From positions 1,678 to 36,866 of the forward strand of contig CAYNDN010000002.1 in the NCBI GenBank assembly GCA_964395075.1: a stretch of DNA of 35,189 bases. The letters run 5' to 3'. Shown here in pieces: positions 16,869-35,189 of the stretch (position 1 is its first letter; the number at the start of each line of letters is the position of its first letter). Below the pieces are notes generated by a model that was not told where the DNA came from, searched no databases, and was given only the letters and a program-made list of their open reading frames with translations. Source of the DNA: an uncultured Lentimicrobiaceae bacterium (GTDB lineage Bacteria; Bacteroidota; Bacteroidia; Bacteroidales; 4484-276). The position numbers and the translations under genes are program-made.

Positions 16869-19800
16869 ATGAAGCAAATTACAAGTTTATGGCTGTTGAT
16901 GTTCTTTTTTGCATCAACCGCATTATTTGCACAAACCGCCAGTACAGGGTTGGCCAAACAGGCCGCTAATCCTGACTTGGATCAGCAAAAAATGGAGATG
17001 ATGCAAAATCTCAATGCTGAGACACAACCCGGCGTTTTACCTGGCGTAAACCAAACCAACGGGAACCATTACAGCAAGTTCCAGGGGCCAAACGGTACAA
17101 GAGACGTATTGTACGACAATGGTCCTTTTGTAACTGCTGAAGGAGTTGGTTCTAACGGAACAGACTACAGTGAGTTGCAGGATGCATCTCTCGGTATGGG
17201 AACTTATGGTTCCGGTGTACAACTTAGTGCCGGAAACTCACTCGCTGACGAATTTGAAGTAACCGGAACATGGATCGTAAACAGCATAACTGTTTATGGT
17301 TATCAAACTGGTTCAGGTCCGCCATCAACACTCACAGGTGTTTATATGCAAATTTGGGATGGTGATCCAACAGCAGGTGGTTCAGTTATTTGGGGTGATC
17401 TCACGACAAATATCATGGAATCAACCGAATGGACAAACGCCTGGCGCGTTCTTGAATCAGGCCCAACAGAAAACCGCCCGATTATGGCAGCAGTAGCTGA
17501 AATTGGTGGTGAGGTATTTAATGCCGGCACATACTGGATTGAGTATTCACTGGATGGCTCAGGTGCTTCAGGTCCCTGGAACCCACCGGTAACGATTGTT
17601 GGTGAAACCACAACAGGTAATGCACTGCAAAATCAATCAGGTACTTGGGTAGCTCTCGAAGACGTTGGCCCACAGGGCATTCCATTTGTAGTAGAAGGAT
17701 TTGAAGGTCAGCCGCCAGCCAATGATGTTAGCATTTCTGCTATCGTTGAGCCTGTATCAGGTGTTGACCTTACAGCTGCCGAACCTGTTACCATTACCAT
17801 TAAGAATAATGGTACTGACGAACAAAGCGACATTCCTTACGAAGTTACCTGGGATGGCCCGACTGGTACACAAACCGTTAGCGGAACCTTTGCAGGCCCG
17901 CTTGCCTCAGGAGCAACTGAAGATGTAACACTTGCAGAAACCGCTGACCTTTCAGCTTATGGCACATACGATTTCGAAGCCTGCACAATGCTTGCCGGTG
18001 ACGAATATCCTGATAACGACTGCAAAACCAAAACTGTAACCAATGACGAACCCAGCCTCTGTATTGAAAATCTTTACACAAGTGGTTGTGGCTTCGGTGA
18101 TGGTCTGATCTCATGGTCACTGGAAAATATTGAGGTTCCGGATATTCCATGTTCCGGTACACCGGAATGGTATCATGATTATACTGACCAGGTGCATAAC
18201 CTGCCTCCGGGAGATTATGATTTGACTGTTGTGGCCGGTTATGGCTCAACATACTTTGACGTTTGGATTGACTTTAACGATGACCTGCTCCTCACTGATG
18301 ACGAGTTGGTATTGGATGATGCTGTATGTACTGATGCTAACGTGCCTTATGTGTTTACGGTATCCGTTCCCTCAGGTGCTGCACCAGGACAACACGTGCT
18401 TCGTTTCCGTACAAACTGGATCGACCCCGTTCTTGATCCTTGTGAAACTTACTCTTATGGTAACTGCTGCGATTTCTCAGCATTGATTGGCGATGCTCCT
18501 GCAAATGATGTGGGTGTTACCTCAATCGACATGGCTACATTTTATGAGCCGGGTATGGTTACTCCTATGGCTACAGTTAAAAACTTTGGTACTGATACTC
18601 AAACATTTGATGTTACACTTACCATCGACGGTTACAGCTCAACAATGAATGTTGCCGGTCTAGCTTCAGGTGCTACCGAGCAGGTAACATTTGATGACTG
18701 GAATGCAACTGAAGGTTCATTTACAGCTGAAGCTTGTACAGATCTTTCAGGAGATGAAAATCCCAATAACGACTGCAAAACGCTTGGCATTACCGTTATG
18801 GAAGGCCAGTTCGTTTATGCTTATAATGCTTATGATCCTTCAGGTGCTTTGGTAGAAGGTCCGGTTTCATTCGACCTTGCTTTGCCGGGAATGGTTAACC
18901 TGATTGCTCCAACCACAAGTACCGACTTTATTGCAGGTGGTTGTTGGGCAGCAGATACCTGGTGGGGTGTTCAGTACGGTGGCGGCCTTTATACCATCGA
19001 CACAGAAACCGGTGACATGACACTGGTAGGCTCAAGCCCTGACTGCAGTGGCCTTGCTTTTGACGGATCCACAGTTTACGGTGCATCGATCACTGACCTC
19101 TACACCATTGATCCTGCCACAGGACAAGGTACCATGATTGGCCCAATGGGTAATACAGGTGCATTGATGATTGGAATCGGTTGTGACGCCGCAGGAAACC
19201 TTTACGGTTTCGATATTGGCGATGATAATTTCTACAGCATTGATAAAGTAACCGGTGCTGCAACACTTGTTGGATCAACCGGACAAAACTTTAACTATGC
19301 ACAGGATATGTCGTTCGATAAAGCTAATGATGTTTGTTACCTTTCAGGATATACTACCACCGGTGGGCTTTACACTGTTGATGTTGCAACCGGTGCAGCT
19401 ACATTACTCGGTGAATTCCAGGGTGGTGCCGAAATCACAGGTTTTGCTATTCCTGGTGCCGGCCTTCCTCCGGCAGGTCCTCCTCCAACAGCATTTGATG
19501 CCAATTTCTTTGAAGGCTCAGGTGTTGAAACCGAATGGATTGATCCTCAGGAAATGGGTACATGGATTGGTTATGACGACGGTGAGAACGTTGGTGGCCT
19601 TGGCCTGAATGGTGGTGGAGAATATTGGGCTGCCATCCGTTGGGAGCCAGCTGACCTGACTCCTTTTGATGGACAATACATAACTAAATTCCAGTTCTTC
19701 CCAAGTTTGTTTGCTGTTGAAGCTGACATCACTTTCATGATTTGGGAAGGTGCCGACGCCGCAACAATGGTTTATGAGCAAGTACTCAGTAATCTTGACT

Positions 19801-22800
19801 GGGATGAATGGAACACCATTATGCTTGATGCAATGCATACAATTGATGCATCACAGGAACTCTGGATTGGATTCCACGTTGTGCATGCAGATGGTGAATA
19901 TCCATTAGGATATGATGAAGGCCCTGCTGTAGCCGGATATGGTGATATGGTTTCATTTGATGGTGTGGACTTCGTTTCGATGGCCAATGAATACTCTATC
20001 GATAACAACTTCAACCTCCATGCTTTTGTTGCCGAAGAAACTGATGGTGTTATCAGCAACAAGCAGCCATTACCAATGCCTGGTGCAACTGTAACAAACA
20101 CTGAACTTGCTACTACCGAATTAAGGCCCACTGAAGCCCCAACTAACAGCAGGGGTTTTGTTGGTATTAATATATACAGGGATGGCATGGTCGTAAATGC
20201 TGATCCCGTTGCTCCCGGAGTGCAGGCTTACACAGATGCTTTCTTTGAGAATGGAACATACATGTATTATGCAACTGCTGTTTATGATGACGGCGAATCT
20301 GTTCCAACTGCAATGGTTGAAGTAACCATCGACATGGGTGCCGGTCCTGAAATTTCAGTAACTCCGGAATCGATGTATGAAACACATGTTGTACCTCCTG
20401 CACAGCAAACCACACAGGAACTCATGATTACCAACACCGGTACAGAAACACTGGATTGGGAAATTGAACTTGATCTTGGCAGAGGTGCCGAGCCAACCAT
20501 GACTCCAATGGATCCGGCAGAATATCAGCAATTGCTCAATGAGCGTATGCTTGCTGAAGGTGTTGCCCTTCCAAGTACAGGTCTTGCACCAAGAGGTTCT
20601 TATGAGCCATTGACAGGTGCAACAGGTAATCCGCTCAACACACGCGAAACATTCTATGCATACAATGCGTATGATCCAAGTGGTGCTTTGGCTGAAGGCC
20701 CGGCATACTTCGATAGCGAAACTCCTGGTGTTATTACCCAACTTGCGCCAACCACAAGTAGCGACTTTATCGCTGGTGGTTGCTGGGCAGCCGACGTATG
20801 GTGGGGTGTTCAGTATGGTGGTGGCCTTTACACCATCGATAACGAAACCGGTGACATGACATTTGTAGGTAATAGCCCTGACTGCAGTGGCCTTGCTTTT
20901 GACGGAACAACTGTTTATGGTGCTTCAATTACCGACCTCTATGAAATTGATCCTGCAACAGGACAAGGTACAATGATCGGTTCAATGGGTAACCCAAGTG
21001 GCCTGATGATTGCCATTGCTTGTGATGCCAATGGCGACCTTTATGGTTTTGATATTGGTGACGATACATTCTACAGCATTGATAAAGGAACCGGCGCAGC
21101 TACAGCTATTGGCGTAATGGGTCCGAACTTTAACTATGCTCAGGATATGGCATTCGATAAGGATAATGATGTATGTTACCTGGCCGGATATACCACTGCT
21201 GGTGGCCTCTACACTGTTGATGTAGCTACCGGTGCTGCCACACTCGTTGGAGAATTCCAGGGCGGTGCTGAAATGACTGCAATGGCTATTCCTTATGCAG
21301 GTGTAACTTACGAAAATGACATCAGCCTTTCTTCCATTGTTTCTCCTGTAACCGGCGTTGAACTCTCCGCTGCAGAAGATGTGATCATTAAAATTAAGAA
21401 TAATGGTACAGCTCCTCAGTCAGGTTTTGATTGGGAAGTTACATGGGATGGCCCAACAGGCCCCGGATCATATAGTGGTGTTTACAGCGAAACGCTTGCC
21501 GCCGGTGAATCGGTTGAAGCAAATGTTGGAACTGCTGACCTCTCAGTTTATGGTGATTATACTTTTGAAGCTTGTGTAACACTTGTTGGTGATGAAAATC
21601 CGGATAATGACTGCAAAACCAAAATGGTTACCAACAACGAGCCAAGTCTCTGTATTGATGGTCTCTATACATCAGGTTGTGGATTTGGCGACGGTCTGAT
21701 CTCATGGAACTTTGCTAACGTTGATGTTCCTGATATCCCATGTTCTGGTACACCGGAATGGTATCATGATTATACAGATATGGTTCATGCATTTGACGCT
21801 GGTGAAACCTATACACTGACCGTTGTTGCCGGTTACGCATCAACCAACTTTGATGTTTGGATCGACTGGAACGATGATCTTGACCTCACCGATGATGAAA
21901 TTATCCTTAACGATGGTGCTTGTACTGATGCCAACGTACCTTATACATTTGAAGTTACTATTCCGGCAGATGCTCCTGGTGGAGACCATATCCTGAGGTT
22001 TAGGACCAACTGGATTGATCCTGTTTTGGATGCCTGTGAAACTTACTCTTATGGTAACTGCTGCGATTTCAAAGCCAATGCAGGTGGTGGACAACCAAGT
22101 GAATGGCTCTCTGTTGATATGATGAGCGGTTCTGTAGAACCTGGTGATACACAAACTGTGATGGTTATGTTTGATTCTGAAGGCCTTGATCTTGGATTGT
22201 ACGAAGGTATGGCTATGGTAACAAGCAACGCAACAAATACCCCAACTGTTGAAGTATCTTGCACACTCGACGTTACTGATGAGCAGCTACCGGTTGCTAT
22301 TGAAGTTGATCCGGAATCACTCACAGAAACACATACAATTCCCGGTCCTCAGGTAACAACTCAGGAAGTTACCATTACCAATACAGGTGAAACCGATGAT
22401 CTGGATTGGGAAATTGCCGTTGATCTTGGTACTTCACCAAGCCAGCACATGGACGCCGAAGAATACGCACGTTTACTCGAAGAACGTCAGGCTTATGAAG
22501 GACAACCTGCCAATGACGTTCAATATGGAGTAACTCCGGGTTATAACGTAACAGGTGGAAACCACTACAGCAAGTTCCAGGTTTCAGACGGAACACGTGA
22601 TGTACTTTATGACAATGGTCCATTCATCACTGCTGAAGGTGTTGGTTCTAACGGATCAGACTACAGTGAGTTGCAGGATGCATCTCTTGGAATGGGAACC
22701 TATGGTTCAGGTGTACAGCTGAGTGCAGGAAACTCACTTGCTGACGAATTTGAAGTAACCGGAACATGGATCGTAAACAGCATTACTGTTTATGGTTATC

Positions 22801-25800
22801 AAACTGGTTCAGGTCCGCCATCAACACTTACCGGTGTTTACATGCAAATTTGGGATGGTAACCCAACATCTGGCGGATCAGTTATTTGGGGTGACCTCAC
22901 AACCAACATCATGTCCTCAACAGAATGGACAAACGTATGGCGTGTGCTGGAATCAGGCCCAACAGAAAATCGTCCGATTATGCAGGTTGTTGCTGACCTC
23001 GGTGGGTTAGCATTGAATGCCGGCACATACTGGATTGAGTACTCACTGGATGGTACAGGTGCTTCAGGCCCGTGGAACCCACCGGTAACGATTGTAGGCG
23101 AAACCACAACAGGTAATGCACTGCAAAATCAATCAGGTACTTGGGTAGCTCTTGAAGATGTTGGCCCACAGGGTATTCCTTTCATTGTTGAAGGTTTTGA
23201 AGGACAGCAGCCAGGTGATGACGTTAGCATCTCAGCTATTGTTGAACCCATGTCAGGTGTTGAACTTGGATCAGCTGAACCAATTACAATCACACTGAAG
23301 AACAATGGTACCAATGCACAAACAAGTATCCCATGGGAAGTTTCTTATGACGGCCCAACAGGCATGGAAACTTTCTCAGGTACATGGACAGGTAACCTTG
23401 CTTCAGGCGAAAGCCTTGACGTTACACTCGCTGAAACAGCTGACCTCTCAGCTTTTGGTGATTATGATTTCGAAGCCTGTACCATGCTTCCAGGCGATGA
23501 GTATCCTGATAATGATTGCAAAACCAAAACTGTTACCAACGATGAACCAAGCCTCTGTGTTGATAACCTCTACACATCAGGTTGTGGATTTGGTGATGGG
23601 CTGATCTCATGGAACTTTGCTAACATCGATGTTCCGGATATCCCATGTTCAGGTACTCCTGAATGGTATCATGACTACACTGATATGGTACACGAATTTA
23701 ACGCCGGTGAAACATATACACTTACTGTTGTTGCCGGTTATGCCACTACAAACTTTGATGTATGGATCGACTGGAATGACGACCTCCTCCTCACCGATGA
23801 CGAACTCATCCTTGATGATGGTGCTTGTGCTGATGCCAACGTGCCTTACACATTTGAAGTTACTATTCCTTCAAGTGCAACAGGTGGCGACCATATCCTG
23901 AGGTTCAGAACAAACTGGATTGATCCTGTTGTTGATCCTTGCGAAACATACAGCTATGGTAACTGCTGCGATTTCAAAGCTAACGCTGGCGGTGGCTCAG
24001 GTGGAGACGACTGGTTGTCAGTTGATATGATGAGCGGCTCACTGAGTCCCGGTCAATCTGAAACTGTAACTGTTACCTTCAACTCCGAAGATCTTGCTGT
24101 TGGCGTTTACAATGGTGCACTCATGATTACAAGTAATGCACAAAACAACCCAATGGTTGAAGTTCCTTGTACCCTTACCGTTGAGGAAGAAGGTGGTAAC
24201 ACTGTAGTATTCGAACCATTCGAAGACTATGTTGCTGATGACTATCTGGTTGCACAAGCTATTGCTCAGGGTAAAGAATACTGGACAACCTGGAGCGAAT
24301 CACCAGGTGGTGCAGAAGACCCATTTGTTAAAGATGACCAGGCTTATGAAGGGTCAAACTCTATGGTGATAGAAGGCACAAACGATGCTGTACTGATCAT
24401 GCCTGAAAATTATAGCTCAGGGCAGTTTAACATCGACTTTATGGTTTACATCCCAACAGGCAAGATTGGATACTTCAACGCTCTCCAGTTATTTGCTGGT
24501 ACTGCTAGTGAATGGGGTATGCAAGCATACTTTGATGTTGGAGGTGCTGGTTTGGTTGATGCCGGTGGTGCAGGTGCAGGTGCTTTCACCTATACTTACG
24601 ACACATGGCACAATGTGGAAATGATGATCGACCTCGACGCTGACAATGCAGAAATGTATTTCAATGGCGACATGATCGTTCAATGGCAGTGGAGTACCGG
24701 TTCATTCGGTACAGGTACACTCAATGAGTTCCACGCTATGAACTTCTATGCATGGGCTGAAAACGGTACACCAGGTGCTTACTTCGATAATATTGATATC
24801 ACAAAAGATGGTGGCGGTGAATTGCCAGATCCACCAATCAACTTTGTTGGTACCGATAGTGGTTCAGATGCATTGCTTTCATGGGAATATCCAGGCATAT
24901 TCGAACCAACCTGGATTACATATTCTGGTGAAGAGATCACCAACTCAATAGGTACAAACGCCGCTGCAAACTTTGATGTTGCTGCACGTTGGGAACCTGC
25001 TGATCTCACCGGATTTGAAAATGGTGCAGTAACCAAGATCAACTTTGTTCCTGGTGAACCTGGCGACATTTGTACATACACATTAAAAGTATGGCAAGGT
25101 GCCGGCAACCCAACACTGATTTATGAGCAGGAACTTACAGAAGTTGTTGCTGATGTGTGGAATGAAGTTACTCTGGATACTCCGGTTCCGTTTGATAATA
25201 CCCAGGAGCTCTGGATCGGTTTCAACAACAACACTACCGCAGGATTCCCCGCCGGATGTGATGATGGTCCACAGGATGAAGGCCTCGGTAACATGATGTT
25301 CTGGGAAGGTTCATGGGTAACCCTCACATCACTCAACCCGGATCTGATTTACAACTGGGCTGTTCAGGGTTACATCGAATTTGCCGGTGATGCTGAAGCA
25401 TTGCTGCCTATCGAAGGTGAACCTGTGGTAGTTGAAAACGAAGGAGATCTTGCATTGAATCCTGTTAAGATCACACCTCCGGCTATATTCATACCAGAAT
25501 CAGCAAGATCACTTACCTTCAACGTTTATCGTGATGGTGTAAAAATTGCTGAAGAAATTACCGGATTATCATACATTGATTCCGACCTCAATGCTGGTAC
25601 TTATGTTTATTATGCTACTGCTGTTGTTGATGATGTGGAATCTAATCCTTCAAATGAAGCAACAGTTGTAATTACAAGCATCAACGAACTCGCTGCTTCT
25701 TCATTCAAGGTATATCCTAACCCAACAAACGGCGTTGTAAATATCGAATCCGACCTCGAGCTGAAATCAGTTAAACTGGTTAACCTCACCGGACAGGTTG

Positions 25801-25925: not shown

Positions 25926-25946
25926 TCCTTAATTGGAACACAATAG

Positions 25947-25979
25947 AAAAAGGGAGCCCATCGGGTTCCCTTTTTTTTT
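25947..25979 (+). terminator. Rho-independent terminator of gene 1
   Basis: GGGAGCCC-atc-GGGTTCCC (8-bp stem with one G.U pair) is followed by T9. It lies 27 nt after the stop. Confidence 0.85.
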
Positions 25980-26020
25980 GTGCTTAAATTCTCAGGTACC
26001 ATTTCGATTTTCAATTTAGG

Positions 26021-26103: not shown

Positions 26104-26265
26104 ATTTTCCGGAACGCTGACAGGGTTCCGAACCATGTCAGAGTTTGTTTGTCTAAGACTCCATAGGAGTCAAATATCTATAAAAGAGATGTTTTAGTTG
26201 TTAATCAACGATCCCGGCGTGGGTCGAATAATCCCCTGGTGGCTTAAAGACCTAACCACAGAATT

Positions 26266-26302
26266 TTTGCATTTCACTAATCAATATATTAACTTTACAC
26301 CC
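26266..26302 (+). promoter_or_regulatory. Orphan copy of the giant-gene promoter cassette (TTTG-N20-TAACTTTA-CACCC), facing palindromic unit U1
   Basis: TTTGCATTTCACTAATCAATATATTAACTTTACACCC aligns with the cassettes at 26755 and 33579. The U1 left arm starts 9 nt after the -7 box. Confidence 0.4.
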
Positions 26303-26305
26303 ATT

Positions 26306-26398
26306 AAACTGTCAGACAGTTTTTGCTATTCCTAAAAAATCAAATTTACACAGATATTTCATGTATTCTTTAAGGGTCATATAAACTGTCTGACAGTT
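26306..26398. repeat. Palindrome-bounded unit U1 (93 bp)
   Basis: The left arm is AAACTGTCAGACAGTTT (26306-26322) and the right arm is AAACTGTCTGACAGTT (26383-26398). It is nearly identical to U2. Confidence 0.9.
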
Positions 26399-26435
26399 AA
26401 TTCTGACTAACAACACTAAAAATTGAAATGCACCA

Positions 26436-26473
26436 GGAAAAATGAAAAGTACAGACGCCCAATTTGGGCGTCT
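26436..26473 (-). terminator. Strong hairpin AGACGCCC-aattt-GGGCGTCT with a T-rich tail on the minus strand
   Basis: The perfect 8-bp GC-rich stem spans 26453-26473. Minus-strand downstream sequence is GTACTTTTCATTTTTCC. It lies 12 nt after the end of the frameshifted small ORF. Confidence 0.55.
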
Positions 26474-26484
26474 CTACGGATGCC

Positions 26485-26614
26485 TCATTCGTTAAAGAAA
26501 TGCATACGTAATTGCCAGAATAAAGAAATTTCCACACAATTATTGGAATTCACTATGCTCAGCAATTATTCGATAAGCCTCTTCCTCCCAAATCCTTTCA
26601 TTTCTCTTTTTCAT
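26485..26614 (-). pseudogene. Degenerate small ORF (24 codons, then a frame shift, then about 19 codons); possible RelE/ParE-like toxin remnant
   Basis: The minus strand reads MKKRNERIWEEEAYRIIAEHSEFQ* (26614..26540). The adjacent frame continues NNCVEISLFWQLRMHFFNE* and ends at 26485, just before the terminator. The YRII...VEI..W..RM pattern loosely recalls RelE/ParE C-terminal halves. Confidence 0.25.
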
Positions 26615-26634
26615 ATAGTAACTTTACACCCATG

Positions 26635-26726
26635 AAACTGTCAGACAGTTTTTGCTATTCCTAAAAAATCAAATTTACACAGATATTTCATGTATTCTTT
26701 AAGGGTCATATACTGTCTGACAGTTT
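26635..26726. repeat. Palindrome-bounded unit U2 (92 bp)
   Basis: The left arm is AAACTGTCAGACAGTTT (26635-26651) and the right arm is ACTGTCTGACAGTTT (26712-26726). It differs from U1 by a 2-nt deletion next to the right arm. Confidence 0.9.
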
Positions 26727-26754
26727 ACACCAATAACTTCTCCCGCCATTAACC

Positions 26755-26790
26755 TTGCATTTCACGATTCAAAATATTAACTTTACACCC
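26755..26790 (+). promoter_or_regulatory. Candidate promoter of giant gene 2 (TTG-N20-TAACTTTA)
   Basis: The -33 TTG is at 26755-26757 and the -7 box is at 26778-26785, 39 nt before the ATG. The whole cassette and the 5' UTR end (AAACCCAATTACCTATGAAAAAAG) are conserved upstream of gene 3. Confidence 0.5.
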
Positions 26791-26824
26791 TTATTATTTC
26801 TCAATTCTCTAAACCCAATTACCT

Positions 26825-29800
26825 ATGAAAAAAGTTTTTACACTCCTTGCGCTTTTGTTCCTGGCCTCCACACTAACTGTTCATGCACAAACTGCCGAAA
26901 ATACCGGGCAATCAAAATCCCTCACCGATACTGACCAACTGAAAATTGAGTTGCAGCAAAATCACAAAGTTCAGCAACACCAGGATAGGCTCCCAAATGT
27001 TGGCTCCGGCACCCAAAATCCCAAAGGTGTACATTACAGTCACTATCAAAACAAGAACAACCGTGACTTCGTAATTTGGGACAATGGCCCCATCATCACC
27101 GATTCCTTAGCCGGGAGCAGCGGTTCACACTACAGCCGCTTGCAGGACACAACACTTGGCATGGAAACATTTGGTTTTGGATGCCAGCATTCAGCAGGAA
27201 ATTCCATTGCCGACGACTTTGAAGTTATTACGGATTGGGAAATTCATAAAATTACAGTTTATGCCTACCAAACCGGATCAGATCCGCCGTCAACATTTAC
27301 AGGTGTTTATATGCAAATTTGGGATGGTGATCCAACAGCTGGCGGCTCAGTAATTTGGGGTGACCTTAATACAAACGTCCTTGAATCAACAGAATGGACA
27401 AATATTTGGCGGGTCAATGAATCTGCTCCGGAAGAAAACCGCCCGATCATGGCAGTTGTTGCTGATGTTACATATATTTTACTCGATGCAGGAACCTATT
27501 GGCTCGAATATTCGCTTGATGGCACTGGAACATCCGGACCCTGGAATCCACCAGTTACTATAACTGGCGAGACCACCACAGGTAATGCTATACAAAATCA
27601 ATCCGGAAACTGGGTTGCGCTCACCGATTTTGGTCCACAGGGTATTCCTTTTATTATTGAAGGGAGTCCGGGTGCATGGGCAATAGATGATGTAGCGGTA
27701 TTTTCAATCCTTGAACCTGCTTCCGGAATAAACCTTGGAAATGCAGAACCGATAACTGTGAGACTTTTTAATAATGGTGCTGATACCCAAACCAGTATTC
27801 CGGTAGAGGTGAGCATGAATGGCCCAACAGGAAGTGTAATGATTTCAGAAACATGGTCCGGAAGCCTTAGTATAGCTCAAACTGTGGATTTCACACTCAC
27901 CCAAACTATGGATTTATCAGTTTTTGGTGATTATGAAATTGAGGCATGCACCCAACTTCCAGGCGATGAGAATCCAGACAATGATTGTAAAATCAAGACT
28001 GTTACTAACTTCGAGCCAAGCCTCTGTATTCCTGATTATTCGAACGGTTGTGGATATGGTGATGGTTTGATTTATTGGTCACTGGAAAATATTGAAGTTC
28101 CGGATATTCCTTGTTCCGGAGTACCAGAATGGTATCATGATTACCGCGACATGATACATAACCTGACTTTTGGTGATTTTGATCTGACAGTTGTTGCTGG
28201 TTATTCAACAACAAATTTTGATGTTTGGATAGATTTTAATGATGATTTGTATTTTTCAAACGAGGAATTAGTATTAAACGATGCCCAATGTGTTGATGCT
28301 AATGTTCCTTACACATTTACCATTACTGTGCCTACATATGCTGTTCCTGGTGAGCACTTCCTTCGTTTCCGCACAAACTGGATTGACCTGGTGACTCATG
28401 AATGCCAAACCTATAGCTATGGCAATTGTTGTGATTTTTCAGCGGACATATTGCCTCCGTTAATTATGGATGTAGGTGTTGAATTCATTGATATGCTGGA
28501 CTTCTATGAACCTGGCATTATTATTCCTAAAGCAACCCTAAAGAATTTTGGTATGGGTATGTGGACATTTGATGCAATTATGACCTTCGGCAACTATAGC
28601 TCAACAGTTGAGGTCACCGATTTAATTCCGGGGTCAAGCCAACAGGTGATTTTCGACACCCTCGAAATAGGGCCCGGAACTTACACCGCTGAAGTTTGCA
28701 CATTTCTTCCTGAGGATGAAAATCCCGCCAATGACTGCAAAACAAAAACCATAACCGTTGTGGAGGGCGAAACCTGGTATGCCTACCTGGCCGAAGACCC
28801 TTCAGGCACGCTGGTAGAAGGCCCGGTGAACTTCGATCCATCCGCACCCGGTGGAATTACTCAACTTGCCCCAACCTCCAGCAACGAAATCATTACCGGC
28901 GCATGCTGGGCGGGTGATACCTGGTGGGGATGTCAGCAGGGTGGAGGGCTTTATTGGATTGACCACACAAACGGAGATATGACTTTTGTGGGTGATGGCC
29001 CTGCACTCAATGGCCTTGCCTTTGACGGTACTGTGGTTTACGGAGCTTCTGATACAGAACTTTTTGAGATAGATCCGGCAATCGGACAGGGAACCCCCAT
29101 TGGTATAATGGGTAATGCCGGCGGGCAGATGATGGGGATTGCCTGCAATGAGAATGGTGATCTGTTTGGCTTCGATGTGGGCGATGATACATTTTACAGC
29201 ATCGATAAAGCCACCGGAGCAGCCACAGCTATCGGGCCGTTGGGTTACAATTTTGAAGGCCCGCAGGATATGGCTTTCAACAAGGCCACGGGCCAGTGCT
29301 ACTTAACAGGTTACACCACCACCGGGGGGCTTTATGCGGTGGATATAAATACAGGTGCTGCAAGTCTGATTGCTGAGTTTCCTGATGGAATCAGGTTGGC
29401 CGGCTTTGCCATTCCTGATGCTGCACCACCCCCTGTTGGTGATCCCCCACAGGGCTTCGATGCTCAGTTTGTTGAAGGTGTTGGCGTGGAATGTTCCTGG
29501 GGTATGAATACGCCCAACGAAGCCTGGCTTGGCTTTGATGATGGAACAAATAGTAATAATCAGTATAATTATTCTGGAATTATCTGCAACGCTATTAACC
29601 TGGATAGGTATATACTTTATGATTATGATGAATGGGAGCTCACACACATAAAGCTTTTTCCAAACAAAGTTACTGATGAATCAGAAATTACTCTGAAGGT
29701 ATGGTCCGGTATGAATCCCGTAACTTTGATTCATGAGCAGGCTATTGAGAACCCCAACTGGAATACATGGAATACGATTCAACTGACAAATTCGGTCACC

Positions 29801-32800
29801 ATTAATTCAACAGTAGGTTTATTGGTTGGATTTCAATACAGTGCTCCGGAGGGTGAACAGCCCATAGGCCATGATGATGGGCCGGCTGTTGCCGGTTACG
29901 GTGATTTGGTTTCTATGGAAGGCGTGTACTTTTATAGTTTAAAATATGCCATAGGGGCTGATTTAAATTTCAACATACATGCATTTGTTCAGGAAAACCC
30001 AGGAGAAGAGTACGTGGTTCTGAGTCCTCACCTTCAAGGCTATCCGGACAATTCAGGCATTTCAAACAGTACAGAAGTAAAAAGTGAAAGCAACCCAAAG
30101 CTTGAATTTCTTGGTGTAAATATTTACCGCGATGGCAACCAGGTAAATAGTAATCTCATCGAACCTGGAGTTACGGAATACATCGATCCATTTTTCGATC
30201 CCGGAACCTGGACTTACACGGCAAGGGCCGTTTACGATGAAGGACTTTCTGATCCCACACCGGGAGTGGAGGTAATAATTCCGGGAACATCGCAAATCTC
30301 CGTTGCCCCTGATTCCATTTTCGAAATCCATGAAACCCCACCCCAAATCACCACACAGGAACTCACCATCACCAATACCGGCGATGAACCGCTGGAATGG
30401 GAAATTGCGATTGATTTTGGAAATGAAAAATCAAAAATTCAGAAAATATCAACAAAGGAATTTGCAAGGCTTTCTGGCAACAGCATGAATAACGATGTGG
30501 GTATTTGGTCGATTGTTGAACCCGCTTCGGGTGTTTACCTCGGCAACGAAGAGCCCGTCACCATCAAGATTCAAAATTATGGAGGCGAAACCCAGACGGA
30601 AATACCCTGGGAAGTAACATGGTCAGGGCCTACCGGAGGCGAAACCTTTTCAGGTACCTGGACTGGCAGCCTCTCAACAGGTGAGGAGGTGGACATTACC
30701 CTCGACGAAACAGTGGACATGTCGGTGTTTGGAGATTATGAATTCGAAGCCTGCACTCAGCTTTCGGGTGATGAAAACCCGGATAACGATTGCAAAACAA
30801 AATGGATAGGCTGTGTGGCACCATCACTTTGTATCGAGAATCTTTATTCTTCAGGCTGTGGTTTTGGCGATGGATTGATTTCATGGCAATTAGCAAATGT
30901 TGATATTCCCGATATTCCCTGTTCAGGAGAGCCGGAATGGTACCACGATTACACTGGCCAGGTGCATCAGTTAGAGGCAGGTGAGACATACTCCCTGATT
31001 GTTGAGGCCGGTTATGAAAGCACATATTTTGATGTGTGGATCGACTGGAACGATGACCTCCAACTCACCGATGATGAACGCATTGTAGATGACGGTTTTT
31101 GCTCATCACCCAATACACCCTACGTTTTCGAAATTGTAACCCCGGCTTCCGCACCGATTGGTAATCATGTGCTGAGGTTTAGAACCAACTGGGTTGATGT
31201 TGTTTTAGACCCATGCGAAACCTACCAGTATGGCAATTGCTGTGATTTTGGTGCTAATCTTATAGGTATTACGCCAATGGAAGACTGGCTATCGGTTGAT
31301 ACAACCAGCGGCGTTATAGCGTCAGGAGCATCACAAATTGTTACTGCAATATTCAATTCCGAAGATTTCTATGCGGGTTCTTATGAGGCTGATATGGTGA
31401 TTTTAAGCAATGATCCTGAAAACCCGGAAGTTATTGTGCCGGTGAGTTTATCAGTTGCCGACACGGTATTACCTGCTTCAATCATTTTTGAGCCCTTTGA
31501 AAGCTACCTGGCCGGTGATTACCTCGTACAACAGGCCGTTGCCCAGGGCAAGGAATACTGGACCACCTGGAGCGGAAGCCCGGGAACTGTCGAAGACCCA
31601 TTCGTTTCAGATTTCTATGCTTACGAAGGCTTTAACGCGATGGTGATCGAAGAATCGAATGATGCGGTATTGGTATTGCCCGAAAATTATACCTATGGCG
31701 TATTTTACGTGGATTTTGAGGTTATGGTACCTGCCGGAAAAACAGGTTATTTCAACTGTTTGCAATCCTTTGCAGGAACAAGCAGCGAATGGGGAATGCA
31801 ATGTTTCCTTGATGTTGACGGAGCAGGCTCTGTAGATGCAGGCGGTGAGGGAAGTGGATCGTTTACCTATGAATACGATGAGTGGAATCATGTACAAATG
31901 ATGATTGATCTGGACGAAGATCACGCCGAAATGTATTTTAACGATGATTTAATTGTGGAATGGCAATGGAGCACAGGCAGTTTTGGAACAGGATCATTAA
32001 ATGCGTTTCATGCGATGAACTTTTTTGCCTGGAGCGATAATGGTACGCCAGGTGCTTTCTTTGATAATATTGACATATCCGTACCGGAAACAAACTTTTT
32101 ATTGCCACCCAACAATTTTACGGGATATGTTGACTGGCTGGGATTTGGTTTCGAGTGGATGCCACCCGGTAGTTTCGAACCACAGTGGATCACTTATTCC
32201 CAGGAAGAAATCAATAATTCCATCGGCACAAATCAAGAGATCAATTTTGATGTTGCAGCGCGCTGGGAACCCGCCGACTTAACCAACTTTGTAACCGGAG
32301 CCGTAACAAAAATAAACTTTGTTCCTGGCGAACCGGGCGATATTTGTACCTATTCGCTCAGGGTATGGCAGGGCAGCCAACCAGACCCTACCCTGATTTA
32401 TGATGAGGTACTCACCGAAATTGTGTCAGATGTATGGAACGAAATAGAACTGGAAAATCCGGTACCGTTTGATAACTCCCAGGATTTATGGATTGGTTTC
32501 AATTGCAATACAACCTCGGGATTTCCGGCTGGTTGCGATGACGGTCCACAGGATGAAGGATTGGGAAATATGATGTTTTGGGAAGGAGAATGGGTGACGC
32601 TGTCTTCTTTAAACCCCGATCTGATATTCAACTGGGCAATCATGGCATATATCGAAAGCAGCCCGCTAAATGAGCCGCCCACACCGCTTTCAATAACCTA
32701 TCCACAGCATAATAGTGGTGGGCAGTTTACGCTTTGCCCTCAATTGATTGATCCTCCTGCAGTGTTCAGCCCCGACAATGTGGCCGCTACGCTGCTGGGC

Positions 32801-33214
32801 TATAACCTTTACAGGGACGGGGAAATTATCCTGGAGGCATATCCGGGCACCGATTATTTTGATGGTGATGTTGATGCCGGGATATTGTATGAGTATTACC
32901 TTACCGCCTTGTACGATGTGGGAGAATCGCCGCCAACTCAAACCTTATACCTGGAGATACCGGATGGCATTGAAGAAGTTGCGCAGGATGCTGTTCAATT
33001 GTATCCAAATCCTGCAGGTGAGCAGCTAAATATTTCTTCTGAACTGGAAATCCTTAGCATCAATTTGTACGATGTAAAAGGTGTTAATATTTTCAAAATT
33101 GATGAATCAGGAACAAATTTTCAAATCAACACCTCACACCTCAAACCCGGCGTCTATACTCTGCAATTAGAAACAGAAAAGGGATTGTCGGTGCATAAGT
33201 TGGTTATAAGATAA
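26825..33214 (+). CDS. Giant modular secreted protein 2 (2129 aa), T9SS cargo. Module order: SP-A-B-C-B-E-D-F-G-B-C-H-I-D'-F-CTD
   Basis: It is one uninterrupted 6390-nt ORF. The signal peptide is MKKVFTLLALLFLASTLTVHAQ. It is collinear with the first roughly 1200 aa and the last roughly 900 aa of gene 1. Confidence 0.9.
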   Translation: MKKVFTLLALLFLASTLTVHAQTAENTGQSKSLTDTDQLKIELQQNHKVQQHQDRLPNVGSGTQNPKGVHYSHYQNKNNRDFVIWDNGPIITDSLAGSSGSHYSRLQDTTLGMETFGFGCQHSAGNSIADDFEVITDWEIHKITVYAYQTGSDPPSTFTGVYMQIWDGDPTAGGSVIWGDLNTNVLESTEWTNIWRVNESAPEENRPIMAVVADVTYILLDAGTYWLEYSLDGTGTSGPWNPPVTITGETTTGNAIQNQSGNWVALTDFGPQGIPFIIEGSPGAWAIDDVAVFSILEPASGINLGNAEPITVRLFNNGADTQTSIPVEVSMNGPTGSVMISETWSGSLSIAQTVDFTLTQTMDLSVFGDYEIEACTQLPGDENPDNDCKIKTVTNFEPSLCIPDYSNGCGYGDGLIYWSLENIEVPDIPCSGVPEWYHDYRDMIHNLTFGDFDLTVVAGYSTTNFDVWIDFNDDLYFSNEELVLNDAQCVDANVPYTFTITVPTYAVPGEHFLRFRTNWIDLVTHECQTYSYGNCCDFSADILPPLIMDVGVEFIDMLDFYEPGIIIPKATLKNFGMGMWTFDAIMTFGNYSSTVEVTDLIPGSSQQVIFDTLEIGPGTYTAEVCTFLPEDENPANDCKTKTITVVEGETWYAYLAEDPSGTLVEGPVNFDPSAPGGITQLAPTSSNEIITGACWAGDTWWGCQQGGGLYWIDHTNGDMTFVGDGPALNGLAFDGTVVYGASDTELFEIDPAIGQGTPIGIMGNAGGQMMGIACNENGDLFGFDVGDDTFYSIDKATGAATAIGPLGYNFEGPQDMAFNKATGQCYLTGYTTTGGLYAVDINTGAASLIAEFPDGIRLAGFAIPDAAPPPVGDPPQGFDAQFVEGVGVECSWGMNTPNEAWLGFDDGTNSNNQYNYSGIICNAINLDRYILYDYDEWELTHIKLFPNKVTDESEITLKVWSGMNPVTLIHEQAIENPNWNTWNTIQLTNSVTINSTVGLLVGFQYSAPEGEQPIGHDDGPAVAGYGDLVSMEGVYFYSLKYAIGADLNFNIHAFVQENPGEEYVVLSPHLQGYPDNSGISNSTEVKSESNPKLEFLGVNIYRDGNQVNSNLIEPGVTEYIDPFFDPGTWTYTARAVYDEGLSDPTPGVEVIIPGTSQISVAPDSIFEIHETPPQITTQELTITNTGDEPLEWEIAIDFGNEKSKIQKISTKEFARLSGNSMNNDVGIWSIVEPASGVYLGNEEPVTIKIQNYGGETQTEIPWEVTWSGPTGGETFSGTWTGSLSTGEEVDITLDETVDMSVFGDYEFEACTQLSGDENPDNDCKTKWIGCVAPSLCIENLYSSGCGFGDGLISWQLANVDIPDIPCSGEPEWYHDYTGQVHQLEAGETYSLIVEAGYESTYFDVWIDWNDDLQLTDDERIVDDGFCSSPNTPYVFEIVTPASAPIGNHVLRFRTNWVDVVLDPCETYQYGNCCDFGANLIGITPMEDWLSVDTTSGVIASGASQIVTAIFNSEDFYAGSYEADMVILSNDPENPEVIVPVSLSVADTVLPASIIFEPFESYLAGDYLVQQAVAQGKEYWTTWSGSPGTVEDPFVSDFYAYEGFNAMVIEESNDAVLVLPENYTYGVFYVDFEVMVPAGKTGYFNCLQSFAGTSSEWGMQCFLDVDGAGSVDAGGEGSGSFTYEYDEWNHVQMMIDLDEDHAEMYFNDDLIVEWQWSTGSFGTGSLNAFHAMNFFAWSDNGTPGAFFDNIDISVPETNFLLPPNNFTGYVDWLGFGFEWMPPGSFEPQWITYSQEEINNSIGTNQEINFDVAARWEPADLTNFVTGAVTKINFVPGEPGDICTYSLRVWQGSQPDPTLIYDEVLTEIVSDVWNEIELENPVPFDNSQDLWIGFNCNTTSGFPAGCDDGPQDEGLGNMMFWEGEWVTLSSLNPDLIFNWAIMAYIESSPLNEPPTPLSITYPQHNSGGQFTLCPQLIDPPAVFSPDNVAATLLGYNLYRDGEIILEAYPGTDYFDGDVDAGILYEYYLTALYDVGESPPTQTLYLEIPDGIEEVAQDAVQLYPNPAGEQLNISSELEILSINLYDVKGVNIFKIDESGTNFQINTSHLKPGVYTLQLETEKGLSVHKLVIR
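27026..28445 (+). repeat. A-B-C module block, copy in gene 2
   Basis: It is homologous to 17058..18480. It includes a 41-nt run identical to gene 1 (27299-27339 = 17334-17374). Confidence 0.8.
28769..29420 (+). repeat. E module, copy in gene 2
   Basis: ETWYAYLAEDPSGTLVEGP...LYAVDINTGAASLIAEFPDGIRLAGFAIPDA. Confidence 0.75.
32960..33211 (+). other. Type-A T9SS C-terminal sorting domain of gene 2
   Basis: VQLYPNPAGEQLNISSELEILSINLYDVKGVNIF...LKPGVYTLQLETEKGLSVHKLVIR. Confidence 0.85.
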
Positions 33215-33223
33215 AACGCTGAT

Positions 33224-33265
33224 AGCAACCACTCCGGAGTATGTTTCTGGGTGGTTGCTGTTTTT
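33224..33265 (+). terminator. Rho-independent terminator of gene 2
   Basis: AGCAACCAC ... GTGGTTGCT (9-bp stem, 18-nt loop) is followed by GTTTTT. It lies 10 nt after the stop. Confidence 0.75.
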
Positions 33266-33277
33266 AATACCGTTATG

Positions 33278-33369
33278 AAACTGTCAGACAGTTTTACTAA
33301 TCCGAAAACAACATTTTCCAGCAAGCATTTTATGTAACCTTTAAAGGTCATTTAAACTGTCTGACAGTT
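33278..33369. repeat. Palindrome-bounded unit U3 (92 bp)
   Basis: The left arm is AAACTGTCAGACAGTTTT (33278-33295) and the right arm is AAACTGTCTGACAGTT (33354-33369). Confidence 0.9.
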
Positions 33370-33432
33370 AAAGGGCCTATTTCGCTCATAATGGTAATAA
33401 TTGTCGAGTGGCTGATTCCTTCAATATTCATG

Positions 33433-33526
33433 AAACTGTCAGACAGTTTTTACCAATCCCCAAAACAACATTTTCCAGCAAGCATTTTATGTAACCTTTA
33501 AAGGTCATTTAAACTGTCTGACAGTT
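33433..33526. repeat. Palindrome-bounded unit U4 (94 bp)
   Basis: The left arm is AAACTGTCAGACAGTTTT (33433-33450) and the right arm is AAACTGTCTGACAGTT (33511-33526). It is nearly identical to U3. Confidence 0.9.
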
Positions 33527-33578
33527 AACACCAACAAACTTAATAACGAATAACCAATAACTTCTCCCCCCAATACCC

Positions 33579-33614
33579 TTGCATTTCCCTTTTCAATATA
33601 TTAACTTTACACCC
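33579..33614 (+). promoter_or_regulatory. Candidate promoter of giant gene 3 (TTG-N20-TAACTTTA)
   Basis: The -33 TTG is at 33579-33581 and the -7 box is at 33602-33609, 37 nt before the ATG. It is the same cassette as upstream of gene 2. Confidence 0.5.
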
Positions 33615-33646
33615 ATATTATCTTAAATCTCAAAACCCAATTACCT

Positions 33647-35189
33647 ATGAAAAAAGTATTTATATTCCTTGTGCTGGTTTTGCTCAACTCCACATCAAGA
33701 ACTTTTGCCCAAATGGGTGATCCACCTTCCGGTTTCACAGCTGATTTTGTTAAAGATGTTGGCGTGGAATGCTCCTGGGGCATGGCTTCACCTCCAACCT
33801 GGTTAGGGTACGATGATGGAGTGAATGCCGGCGGCCTTGGGGCAAATGGCGGAGGCTCATTTTATGTTGCCATTCGCTGGGATTCAGCAGACCTTATTCC
33901 ATATAACGGAAGCTCTTTGACGGCTTTTAAGTTTTTCCCGTTGATGTTTGCCGTTCCTTCCGAGATTACCTTTCATATCTGGGAAGGTAACATTTCTCCA
34001 CAGGTTGTTTATGAACAGGTGCTTCAGAATTTAAACTGGAACGAATGGAATACCATTTACCTGGATGAACCCTACATCATAACTGCTGAACAGGATTTGT
34101 ATGTGGGCTTTAAAGCTACGCATCCTGATGGAGAAGATCCAATCGGCTATGATGATGGCCCCGCCATTTCCGGTTATGGCGATTTAATTTCGTTTGATGG
34201 TACGAATTGGGTAAGCATGAGTGTTGAATTTGGTATGGATAATAATATTAACCTGCAAATATTAGTGGAGGAAGACCCGGATGTACAAGTTATAACAAAC
34301 CCCGGAAACTCGAAGTTAGAATTTCTTGGAATAAATATTTACCGGGATGGCAACCTGGTTAATGGCACCCTCATCGAACCGGGCGTTGAACATTATACTG
34401 ATCCTTTTTTCGATCCCGGAACCTGGACATACACAGCAAGGGCTGTTTACGATGAAGGCCTATCTGAGCCTACCCCGGGAGTTGAGGTAATCATCCCTTA
34501 TGGTCCGCAGATAGCAGTAGAACCCGATGAATTGAATGAAGTCCATAACGCTTTTCCACAAGTTTCGGCACGTGATCTCGTAATAACCAACACCGGTGAT
34601 GAACCGCTGGAATGGGAGATTGAAATTGAGCTGGAAACAAAGCAAACCCAAAAGCAACCCATGGATCCCGATGAATATGCAAAGCTGTTGGCTGAAAGGC
34701 GGGCACAGGAAGGCTTTCAGGCAAATGATGTGCAGCCCGGAGTAATTCCCGGCAATCCTCAAACCAACGGAAATCATTATAGCAAATACCAGCGTAAAAA
34801 CGGAAGCAAGGATATTGTTTTCGATAATGGCCCCTTTATTACTGCTGAAGGTGTTGGTTCAAATGGCTCAGATTACAGTGAATTACAGGATGCAACTTTG
34901 GGTATGGGAACCTATGGATTTGGCTGCCAGATTTCAGCGGGCAACTCCATTGCTGATGATTTTGAATTGACCGGCCCACACAGTATCCCGTATATCGTAT
35001 TTTATGCCTACCAAACAGGTTCCGGACCTCCATCAACCATAAACGATGTGCGAGTACAAATTTACGATGGAGATCCTTCCAACGGTGGAAATGTAATCCA
35101 CGGTGACCTAAGCACTAATGTTTTGTTATCAACAGAGTGGACCAACGTATGGCGGGTGTGGGAATCATATCCCCAGGAAAACCGGCCTA
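33647..35189 (+). CDS. Giant modular secreted protein 3, N-terminal 514 codons (open at the window end). Module order: SP-D-F-G-linker-A...
   Basis: It is not in the ORF track because it has no stop codon in the window. Manual translation from ATG 33647 gives MKKVFIFLVLVLLNSTSRTFAQMGDPPSGFTADFVKDVGVECSWGMASPPTWLGYDDG...INIYRDGNLVNG...ITNTGDEPLEWEIEIE...DPDEYAKLLAERRAQEG...NGNHYSKYQRKNGSKDIVFDNGPFITAEGVG...ENRP. It has no stop and is homologous to modules D, F, G and A of genes 1 and 2. Confidence 0.85.
   Translation, partial: MKKVFIFLVLVLLNSTSRTFAQMGDPPSGFTADFVKDVGVECSWGMASPPTWLGYDDGVNAGGLGANGGGSFYVAIRWDSADLIPYNGSSLTAFKFFPLMFAVPSEITFHIWEGNISPQVVYEQVLQNLNWNEWNTIYLDEPYIITAEQDLYVGFKATHPDGEDPIGYDDGPAISGYGDLISFDGTNWVSMSVEFGMDNNINLQILVEEDPDVQVITNPGNSKLEFLGINIYRDGNLVNGTLIEPGVEHYTDPFFDPGTWTYTARAVYDEGLSEPTPGVEVIIPYGPQIAVEPDELNEVHNAFPQVSARDLVITNTGDEPLEWEIEIELETKQTQKQPMDPDEYAKLLAERRAQEGFQANDVQPGVIPGNPQTNGNHYSKYQRKNGSKDIVFDNGPFITAEGVGSNGSDYSELQDATLGMGTYGFGCQISAGNSIADDFELTGPHSIPYIVFYAYQTGSGPPSTINDVRVQIYDGDPSNGGNVIHGDLSTNVLLSTEWTNVWRVWESYPQENRP
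34766..35189 (+). repeat. A module, partial copy in gene 3
   Basis: NGNHYSKYQ...DNGPFITAEGVGSNGSDYSELQDATLGMGTYGFGCQ...YQTGSGPPST...ENRP aligns with 17058.., 22554.. and 27026... Confidence 0.8.

Follow-up and report, generated by a model that had tools for sequence, protein, structure and literature searches.

Three giant module-sharing type IX secretion cargo paralogues in tandem in an uncultured Lentimicrobiaceae bacterium: a probable case of adhesin-like surface proteins

The stretch of DNA analysed here, 35,189 nucleotides from an uncultured Lentimicrobiaceae bacterium (GenBank assembly GCA_964395075.1, contig CAYNDN010000002.1; the whole stretch is called the window below), carries three co-oriented genes on the plus strand, G1, G2 and G3, which encode giant paralogous proteins assembled from one shared set of modules. 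The two complete proteins end in a type-A sorting domain for a type IX secretion system (T9SS). Our preferred interpretation, held with some confidence, is that they are multivalent, fibrillar-adhesin-like T9SS surface proteins built from mosaic modules. This class fits because the proteins bring together export signals, stalk-type domains and several jelly-roll or propeller-like candidate heads, with no catalytic family among them. An adhesive or ligand-binding role is plausible, judged from domain types and weak fold similarity, and we infer surface anchoring, ligand binding and the co-regulation of G2 and G3. The window covers almost the entire 36866-nt contig, and G3 runs off its end. G1 and G2 are singletons in clustering at 90% identity, both from this one NCBI contig.

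Module architecture and export signals

To map the modules, segments taken from G1 were compared with all three proteins by phmmer, together with piecewise and whole-protein BLASTP. G1 has the order SP-A-B-C-B-E-D-F-G-E-B-C-H-G-A-B-C-H-I-D'-F'-CTD (SP, signal peptide; CTD, C-terminal domain), G2 has SP-A-B-C-B-E-D-F-G-B-C-H-I-D'-F'-CTD, and the visible 5' part of G3 reads SP-D-F-G-A. Matches of modules across the three proteins range in E-value from 1e-9 to 1e-149, well past chance, and the searches return strings identical to those that a preliminary description of the sequence had proposed for three paralogues with a common module set. G1 has the order of G2 with one block, E-B-C-H-G-A, inserted. 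A linker of the form (M)DPxEYxxLLxERxAxEG was also noted between module G and the next A or E module in G1, G3 and the orthologous protein P0145 (described below). In the window it lies at about 20490-20570, 22450-22530 and 34660-34740, or residues ~1209-1232 and 1862-1885 of G1 and ~338-362 of G3, and its possible roles are those of a helical hinge or of a site for processing.

All three N-termini carry, by inspection, the Sec-type signal peptide that had been claimed for them: MKQITSLWLLMFFFASTALFA in G1, MKKVFTLLALLFLASTLTVHA in G2 and MKKVFIFLVLVLLNSTSRTFA in G3, each followed by Q. They share a K-rich n-region, a hydrophobic core of 15-18 residues and A/Q cleavage motifs; a Gln at +1 is typical for exported Bacteroidota proteins. 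At the extreme C-terminus, the last ~72 residues of G1 and G2 match PF18962 (Por_Secre_tail; 49.9 and 49.0 bits, respectively, cut-off 27) and TIGR04183 (type A; 41.2 and 42.1 bits, cut-off 23), so that the assignment of type-A T9SS sorting domains to both complete genes holds above the curated cut-offs of two collections. In studied Bacteroidota the type-A CTD is cut off during export and a lipopolysaccharide anchor takes its place.

Among the modules between these signals, B is CARDB (PF07705; 62.3 bits in G1 and 20.7 in G2, cut-off 22.7) and C is GEVED (PF20009; 89.9 bits over three stretches of G1 and 63.4 bits in G2, cut-off 24.4), and the CARDB-like and GEVED-like labels given before are borne out by the matches in G1. 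The GEVED match is restricted to the last ~78 of the ~150 residues of module C. The eponymous motif YGEVEDY reads YGNCCDF in all five C modules of the window and is kept in its canonical form in two of the three C modules of P0145. Because of the additional cysteines, the YGNCCDF modules suggest a disulfide-stabilised variant of the domain. Module H matches BACON_2 and HYDIN/VesB Ig-like domains in Pfam, and the modules labelled Fn3-like (F) and Ig/BACON-like (G, H) are of stalk or spacer types.

Neither Pfam nor NCBIfam assigns a catalytic family to the window proteins, and PDB sequences give none for the isolated modules; the partial NCBIfam matches to M36 and M4 peptidases touch only C-terminal, non-catalytic CTD or GEVED-like regions. 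This agrees with the earlier statement that no catalytic motif could be recognised. A recognised adhesive-domain family is likewise missing from the Pfam and NCBIfam results. Cleaved_Adhesin (PF07675) and C25 protease are absent from the Pfam results (whole proteins at E<=0.01, isolated modules at E<=10), and NCBIfam gives no SprB-repeat family and the type-A domain alone at the C-terminus.

These absences bear on the possibility that the three proteins are polyprotein precursors, putatively cut at their linkers into associated smaller surface proteins in the manner of gingipains and HagA. The building blocks do occur elsewhere as complete secreted proteins, SP-A of ~265 residues and D-F-CTD of ~350 residues, and the linker after G and before A or E is conserved in G1, G3 and P0145. 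However, the Pfam scans found neither a protease domain nor Cleaved_Adhesin, and internal fragments would have no anchor of their own. We consider processing of this kind unlikely, and it would in any case be compatible with an adhesin role rather than exclusive of it.

Candidate head modules

Module A had been described as unassignable to any family, and our searches bear this out: it is unmatched in Pfam (E<=10) and NCBIfam (E<=1), and its matches to PDB sequences are at chance level only. It represents a large uncatalogued family that is often a stand-alone secreted protein. A word-index search of 5.8 billion clustered proteins returned 253 homologues at 45-59% identity, the majority being stand-alone proteins of ~265 residues that consist of a signal peptide and A. 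Their hosts are spread over many phyla and include Acidobacteriota, Methylomirabilota, Chloroflexota, Caldilineales, Deltaproteobacteria, Ignavibacteria, Holophagae and Bacteroidota. The homologues hold no Pfam domain except the T9SS CTD in Bacteroidota members. When 1.84 billion representatives were searched with a profile, 2781 proteins matched at E<=1e-3 (representing clusters at 50% identity), 1713 of them at E<=1e-30, and many of the matches are giant multi-module proteins with two to four copies of A. Nineteen positions are invariant in the A alignment, including D73, Y91, Q92, R139, R149, W169 and S180-G-P-W183 in the numbering of the 231-residue query.

The C-terminal ends of these homologues vary. 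A tail PVELQSFxVE directly after the domain ends 32 of the 120 listed homologues (tails of this type were noted for proteins P0005, P0016, P0023, P0028, P0046, P0059, P0062 and others), and other ends are TWGxVKxLF(Q), a T9SS CTD or hydrophobic C-terminal anchors, which resemble IPTL- or PEP-CTERM sorting signals. The short tails may be unrecognised sorting signals, and the interchangeability of the C-terminal anchors argues that module A acts at the cell surface.

The AlphaFold model of A is an all-beta jelly-roll (pLDDT 89.9, pTM 0.87). In Foldseek searches of the PDB its top query-normalised TM score is 0.41, to the mycobacteriophage Bxb1 tail-tip protein 9d93. The matches of lowest E-value have TM 0.34-0.38. 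Among the matched structures are phage capsid and fibre proteins, CBM3 and CBM6, the Cwp84 lectin-like domain and PHR, with values of at most 0.37 for CBM3, CBM6 and Cwp84. Among viral models, phage minor-tail and collagen-like fibre proteins match with TM up to 0.44.

Could module A (or I or E) be an enzyme of a new kind, acting for instance on polysaccharides or peptides, so that the proteins would be degradative enzymes displayed at the surface with attached binding modules? Module A is unusually well conserved, at 45-59% identity across phyla, and its invariant residues include D, Y, Q, two R and S; it is frequently the sole domain of a small secreted protein, and many T9SS cargos of environmental Bacteroidota are hydrolases. 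Against this, Pfam, NCBIfam and PDB sequences give no catalytic family, and the fold neighbours of A are jelly-rolls with binding or structural roles. Nor is genomic context conserved around stand-alone A genes: three of them share no conserved neighbours, and no link to a pathway was seen. On balance an enzymatic head seems to us quite unlikely.

Modules D and D' align with 22 invariant columns and D is modelled by AlphaFold as a jelly-roll (pLDDT 90.4), in keeping with the proposal that the two are related and jelly-roll-like. A single-sequence search with D gave one match only, and a profile of the five D and D' copies in the window was needed to find 22 homologues, 30-45% identical to the window copies. 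Since most of these are small T9SS cargo proteins of ~350 residues with the order D-F-CTD, D-F is a conserved pair that also exists alone. Module D is unmatched in Pfam (E<=10) and NCBIfam (E<=1), with chance-level matches only among PDB sequences; D' reaches 16.8 bits (E=0.0068) against DUF4082 (PF13313), below the cut-off of 28.4. In Foldseek, D matches the Cwp84 lectin-like domain (4ci7) with TM 0.55, PHR with 0.44-0.54 and CBM6/CBM35 with about 0.3-0.4. Because the matches of A and D lie at TM 0.34-0.55, "lectin-like" denotes a fold class only for these modules; for A, Foldseek yielded no close solved relative. A and D have a similar motif layout, but their profile-profile comparison gave a probability of 15% over 53 columns, too little to establish a common origin.

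Module E, described before as propeller-like, carries the four LY.ID..TG..T.VG repeats noted for it, and it matches DUF4394 (PF14339) with 55.6 bits in G1, 47.8 bits for the isolated first copy and 27.3 bits in G2 (cut-off 29.6); the matches cover only profile positions 107/142/168-230 of 230. Its matches to PDB sequences are at chance level, and literature searches returned nothing on DUF4394, the palindrome sequence described below or this architecture. Module I is unmatched in Pfam (E<=10), NCBIfam (E<=1) and PDB sequences (profile, E<=10). The family scan that found the expected CARDB, GEVED and TIGR04183 matches did not find the LamG match expected for I. A homologue of I is present in a cargo protein of metagenome loci L009 and L007 (37% identity; 38% in a three-sequence alignment).

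Rather than bind external ligands, the proteins might mainly form, by putative self-assembly, a surface coat or an S-layer-like shield, for instance against phages or grazers. They are very large, rich in beta-modules and T9SS-anchored, the three paralogues have been retained by purifying selection, and the top fold matches include capsid-decoration and phage-fibre domains. However, no resemblance to known T9SS S-layer proteins was apparent, and varied head-type modules on spacers suit adhesins better, so that a coat appears distinctly improbable to us.

Relatives, age of the duplicates and spacer elements

No close relative was found in GTDB species genomes, which hold simpler architectures only: A-x-CTD in Aequorivita marina and Marixanthomonas spongiae, and x-D-F-CTD in Bacteroidales metagenome-assembled genomes. 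An uncultured Flavobacteriaceae metagenome-assembled genome (locus L002, 1127-12936) has four co-oriented tandem T9SS cargo genes (1294, 1213, 609 and 630 aa), three of which contain module E, with the orders A-E-CTD (one gene) and x-E-CTD; this four-gene array indicates that tandem arrays of the module family recur.

The top representative is P0145 (3126 aa; ENA ERZ28617157, scaffold_70; locus L016), the positional orthologue of G1. The synteny check suggested at the outset places it among the same neighbours (KsgA, TPR, SerS, L27/L21, EamA), and it shares with G1 the signal peptide, a near-identical 5' leader, the terminator and the module vocabulary. G1 and P0145 are 55-57% identical and the neighbouring housekeeping proteins 65-76%, so that the giant gene evolves somewhat faster, yet has stayed in place over a long divergence. 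P0145 reads SP-A-B-C-B-E-D-F-G-[A-B-C-H-G]-[E-B-C-H-G]-A-H-D'-F-CTD; compared with G1 it has an additional A-B-C-H-G block and is without the last B-C and module I. The two orthologues differ by gains and losses of whole module blocks on a long time scale. The L016 contig stops 185 nt past the P0145 gene, leaving the positions of G2 and G3 orthologues outside it. The ~33 nt before the G1 start (16835-16868) and the terminator region after G1 (25926-25977) are almost unchanged in L016 (9967-10000 and 19382-19434); as the flanks are near-identical while the proteins are only 55-57% identical, constrained untranslated regions are suggested.

The duplicates are old copies under purifying selection. 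The youngest pair, the two A copies of G1 (90% amino-acid and 86% nucleotide identity), has a synonymous divergence (dS) of 0.55 and a ratio of non-synonymous to synonymous divergence (dN/dS) of 0.11. The corresponding values are 79%, 77%, 1.05 and 0.13 for the two E copies of G1, and 89%, 84%, 0.89 and 0.07 for its second and third C copies. Overall, the youngest intragenic duplicates have dS of 0.55-1.5, dN/dS of duplicates is 0.07-0.24, and synonymous sites are saturated between the genes. The idea of a rapidly reshuffling family, put forward in the preliminary description, finds no support in these values: since the duplicates are old and dN/dS is low, rapid reshuffling or diversifying selection is disfavoured, and the conserved synteny with a relative whose neighbouring proteins are 65-76% identical likewise speaks against rapid or diversifying evolution.

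The same divergence speaks to whether the giant open reading frames (ORFs) are real. In principle they could be chimeric or collapsed short-read metagenome repeats, given that the 36.9-kb contig is of metagenome type and the genes are internally repetitive. Collapse is unlikely because no exact repeat inside the coding sequence exceeds 53 nt and the copies have diverged (at most 86% identical in DNA). The ORFs are, moreover, intact across 9.1 and 6.4 kb, and an independent assembly carries the syntenic 3126-aa P0145, whose start, end, 5' leader and terminator agree with those of G1, so that we give an artefact almost no credence.

The spacers between the genes (899 bp for G1-G2, 432 bp for G2-G3) both hold promoter blocks and palindrome units. 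A hairpin with a T-run follows both G1 and G2, as expected from the earlier claim that each complete gene has its own terminator. The further claim of a promoter for each gene stands for G2 and G3, which share a block TTG-N20-TAACTTTA, but not for G1, where no convincing promoter was found. The block fits the Bacteroidetes -33/-7 promoter consensus, TTG...TAnnTTTG. The G3 block lies in a 69-nt repeat (33553-33621) that is 88% identical to the G2 copy.

The palindrome unit is ~95 nt long, is bounded by AAACTGTCAGACAGTTT and a near-identical partner, AAACTGTCTGACAGTT, and occurs within the window only in the two spacers. The 17-bp palindrome is AAACTGTC[A/T]GACAGTTT; the two of a pair are about 76-78 bp apart and the interior is variable. 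Seventeen matches to the palindrome occur in the window against 0.01 expected, 16 of them inside the two spacers, and with the repeated promoter block these units give substance to the suggestion of dedicated cis elements between the genes. The arrangement of element, promoter and ATG is homologous upstream of G2 and G3, and in the G1-G2 spacer two elements are each directly preceded by a promoter-like block. As RNA, the ends of an element pair in a 16-bp stem (z-score about -4 to -6), which follows from the ends being palindromes themselves; Rfam has no match anywhere in the window.

Four contigs, corresponding to two independent loci, were recovered when 241 million metagenome records were scanned for the exact pattern. 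The identity of the palindromes in these matches was set by the search pattern, with the spacing left free at 50-70 nt; the cores are 64-66 nt apart in all six copies, and the element interiors are unrelated between loci while palindromes and spacing are kept. Downstream of the element, both loci carry a gene for T9SS type-A cargo composed of the same modules. In L008 the element spans 3651-3744, from 5 nt past a perfect -7 box (TATCTTTG) to 15 nt before the ATG, and the cargo downstream (also in L006) is a 947-aa CARDB-GEVED-Ig-BACON...CTD protein. In L009 the element spans 1348-1442, after a LytTR response-regulator gene and before a 102-aa stand-alone LytTR gene, beyond which (as in L007) lies a 1095-aa GEVED-CARDB-Fn3-I-Fn3...CTD cargo.

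The ~95-nt unit is, in our reading, a candidate pair of operators to which a dimeric protein would bind, the alternative being a stem in the 5' leader. The sharing of the promoter block and the paired 17-bp palindromes upstream of G2 and G3 makes one common regulator for these two genes probable. A generic miniature inverted-repeat transposable element was considered and is disfavoured, the independent loci all adjoining this gene family with unrelated interiors. A leader peptide was also considered, from the ATG abutting three elements, and rejected: the frames run for 10, 20 and 23 codons and differ in sequence, and there is no ATG at this place in L008 or L009.

Several further observations concern these loci and spacers. 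The LytTR response-regulator gene of L009 (605-1345) ends at the element start and the stand-alone LytTR gene lies at 1607-1915, with the same arrangement in L007; it is possible that these LytTR proteins regulate the gene family. In L008 the gene next after the element-linked cargo (6979-8655) encodes another T9SS cargo, with a Porphyromonas-type peptidyl-arginine deiminase domain and a type-A CTD. A G+C-rich 9-bp hairpin, AGACGCCCAAATTGGGCGTCT, lies at 26453-26473 in the G1-G2 spacer, with a T-run on the minus strand only and no apparent gene there. No remnant of a deleted paralogue stood out in this 899-bp spacer in a listing of small ORFs, which were not compared with the cargo proteins.

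Upstream of G1 the window holds only housekeeping genes, on the opposite strand or distant, encoding a LuxR-type response regulator (1207-1950), a histidine kinase, DnaE, SodA, KsgA, a TPR protein, SerS and an EamA transporter. Like the LytTR proteins of L009, this LuxR-type protein is a candidate for binding the 17-bp palindrome. At 4733-9103, the 1456-aa alpha subunit of DNA polymerase III has an RNase_T-type exonuclease domain N-terminal to its PHP domain. Two minus-strand ORFs of ~250 aa, at 306-1058 and 3770-4546, have no Pfam match; the latter is mirrored by an equally long plus-strand ORF (3792-4538), so that its coding strand is ambiguous. Positions of the features of the array are collected in Table 1.

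Table 1. Genes, modules and spacer features of the three-gene array (window positions)
Feature	Position	Strand	Remark
G1	16869..25925	+	complete ORF, 3018 aa; T9SS type-A cargo
G2	26825..33214	+	complete ORF, 2129 aa; T9SS type-A cargo
G3	33647..35189	+	third paralogue, 5' part; from ATG 33647, 514 codons, open at window end
Module A, copy 1 of G1	17052..17714	+	AF2 (AlphaFold) pLDDT 89.9; jelly-roll, uncatalogued family
Module A, copy 2 of G1	22548..23213	+	90% aa, 86% nt identity to copy 1
Module A of G2	27017..27676	+	phmmer module map
Module A of G3	34760..35188	+	first 143 residues only
Module E, copy 1 of G1	18807..19466	+	DUF4394, PF14339
Module E, copy 2 of G1	20646..21305	+	79% aa identity to E copy 1
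Module E of G2	28769..29428	+	phmmer; Pfam 27.3 bits, just below cut-off
Module D of G1	19524..20063	+	AF2 jelly-roll, pLDDT 90.4
Module D of G2	29486..30016	+	alignment and phmmer
Module D of G3	33764..34303	+	alignment and phmmer
Module D' of G1 (divergent D)	24870..25463	+	alignment; sub-threshold DUF4082
Module D' of G2	32147..32707	+	alignment and phmmer
Module I of G1 (~205 aa)	24195..24812	+	no family match
Module I of G2	31475..32086	+	70% aa identity to G1 copy
Module C, five copies	18045-18491, 21636-22085, 23541-23990, 28010-28453, 30815-31267	+	GEVED-type
Type-A CTD of G1	25704..25922	+	PF18962, TIGR04183
Type-A CTD of G2	32993..33211	+	PF18962, TIGR04183
Intrinsic terminator after G1	25945..25977	+	15-bp stem and T-run; kept in L016
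Terminator-like hairpin after G2	33225..33265	+	GCAACCAC/GTGGTTGC stem 33225-33258, then TGTTTTT; read by eye
Promoter-like block P1	26267..26297	+	TTG-N20-TAACTTTA; element e1 directly after
Promoter-like block P2	26596..26626	+	-33 degenerate (TTT); element e2 directly after
Promoter block P3 of G2	26755..26785	+	TTG-N20-TAACTTTA, 40 nt before ATG
Promoter block of G3	33579..33609	+	TTG-N20-TAACTTTA, 38 nt before ATG
Paired-palindrome element e1	26303..26400	.	AAACTGTCAGACAGTTT ... AAACTGTCTGACAGTT
Paired-palindrome element e2	26632..26727	.	about 98 nt upstream of G2 ATG
Paired-palindrome element, G2-G3 spacer copy 1	33275..33371	.	palindrome scan
Paired-palindrome element, G2-G3 spacer copy 2	33430..33528	.	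about 119 nt upstream of G3 ATG

Proposed mechanism and relation to known systems

Taken as adhesin-like proteins, G1, G2 and G3 would work as follows. The jelly-rolls A and D/D', probably I, and the propeller-like DUF4394 module E would be putative ligand-binding heads, set apart by a stalk of CARDB (B), GEVED-variant (C), Fn3-like (F) and Ig/BACON-like (G, H) spacers, with the type-A CTD at the chain end as the surface-anchor signal. At the surface the proteins would act as multivalent binders of polymers, particles or other cells, and several distinct heads in each molecule, together with three paralogues, could make binding broader or stronger. They may have arisen by old block duplications and insertions (G1 being G2 plus E-B-C-H-G-A) and by fusion of units found elsewhere as small secreted proteins (A alone; D-F-CTD), the copies presumably being maintained by purifying selection, while G2 and G3 would probably answer to one DNA-binding regulator. 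Of the features by which fibrillar adhesins are recognised, repeated stalk domains are present and the anchor signal is the type-A CTD, from which surface anchoring is deduced. It was in the fibrillar adhesin CshA that GEVED was defined as a domain, and domain shuffling has been argued to generate adhesins (PMC10952558).

Several points weigh against this interpretation. The fold matches of A and D are weak (TM 0.34-0.55), and across phyla A retains 45-59% identity and a set of invariant polar residues (D73, Y91, Q92, R139, R149 and S180), a conservation that exceeds that of most carbohydrate-binding modules and could point to an enzyme or a very specific ligand. The T9SS machinery genes are absent from the window. 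With regard to regulation, G1 has neither the shared promoter block nor the palindromes, the element is absent upstream of both G1 and its orthologue P0145, and the distance from element to start codon varies among loci.

A further interpretation, possible but held only tentatively, joins two of these strands: that A is a conserved cross-phylum surface family with one specific ligand or activity, and that the ~95-nt unit is a dedicated regulon device. On the first part, A would be used either by itself, with anchors that can be exchanged, or in several copies within giant proteins; on the second, the palindromes would be paired operators or a 5'-leader stem of a T9SS cargo regulon in one Bacteroidota lineage.

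Giant T9SS cargo proteins make up a large and mostly unannotated share of the surface of environmental Bacteroidota and probably decide attachment and feeding. The present locus yields well-defined domain limits, together with confident models of two uncatalogued heads, A and D, the former a widespread family that deserves a database entry. It also documents the growth of such proteins by fusion of stand-alone secreted units and brings to light a cis-regulatory candidate associated with the family. The known picture of domain-shuffled adhesins is extended by these results, and no current idea is overturned.

The closest parallel for the adhesin-like interpretation is with fibrillar adhesins such as CshA of Streptococcus gordonii, which are likewise secreted, anchored, non-enzymatic mosaics in which GEVED and Ig-like or CARDB-type stalks carry heads and the architecture varies through module gain and loss. 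CshA differs in having an LPXTG anchor rather than a T9SS type-A CTD, and an NR2 head rather than uncatalogued jelly-rolls (A, D, I) and DUF4394; its heads are only at the tip, whereas here they are interspersed along the chain, and the GEVED motif here is GNCCD. The HagA and gingipain polyproteins of Porphyromonas gingivalis are T9SS type-A cargo of very large size too, in which beta-sandwich adhesin modules recur and paralogues have modules in common, but their Cleaved_Adhesin or C25 protease domains were not found here. SprB and RemA of Flavobacterium johnsoniae are, similarly, giant repetitive T9SS-exported surface adhesins of Bacteroidota; unlike the window proteins, with type-A domains (TIGR04183) and no repeat-family match, they have type-B CTDs and SprB-type repeats. 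The stand-alone A (~265 aa) and D-F-CTD cargo proteins contain the same domains in single-head form, whereas the window genes chain as many as two A modules, two of D type and two E modules. The locus is a genuine, if rather ordinary, instance of adhesin-like proteins that domain shuffling has built, and what is particular to it is the type-A T9SS anchor, the uncatalogued heads A, D and I, the concatenation of stand-alone units, the GNCCD variant of GEVED and the palindromic element.

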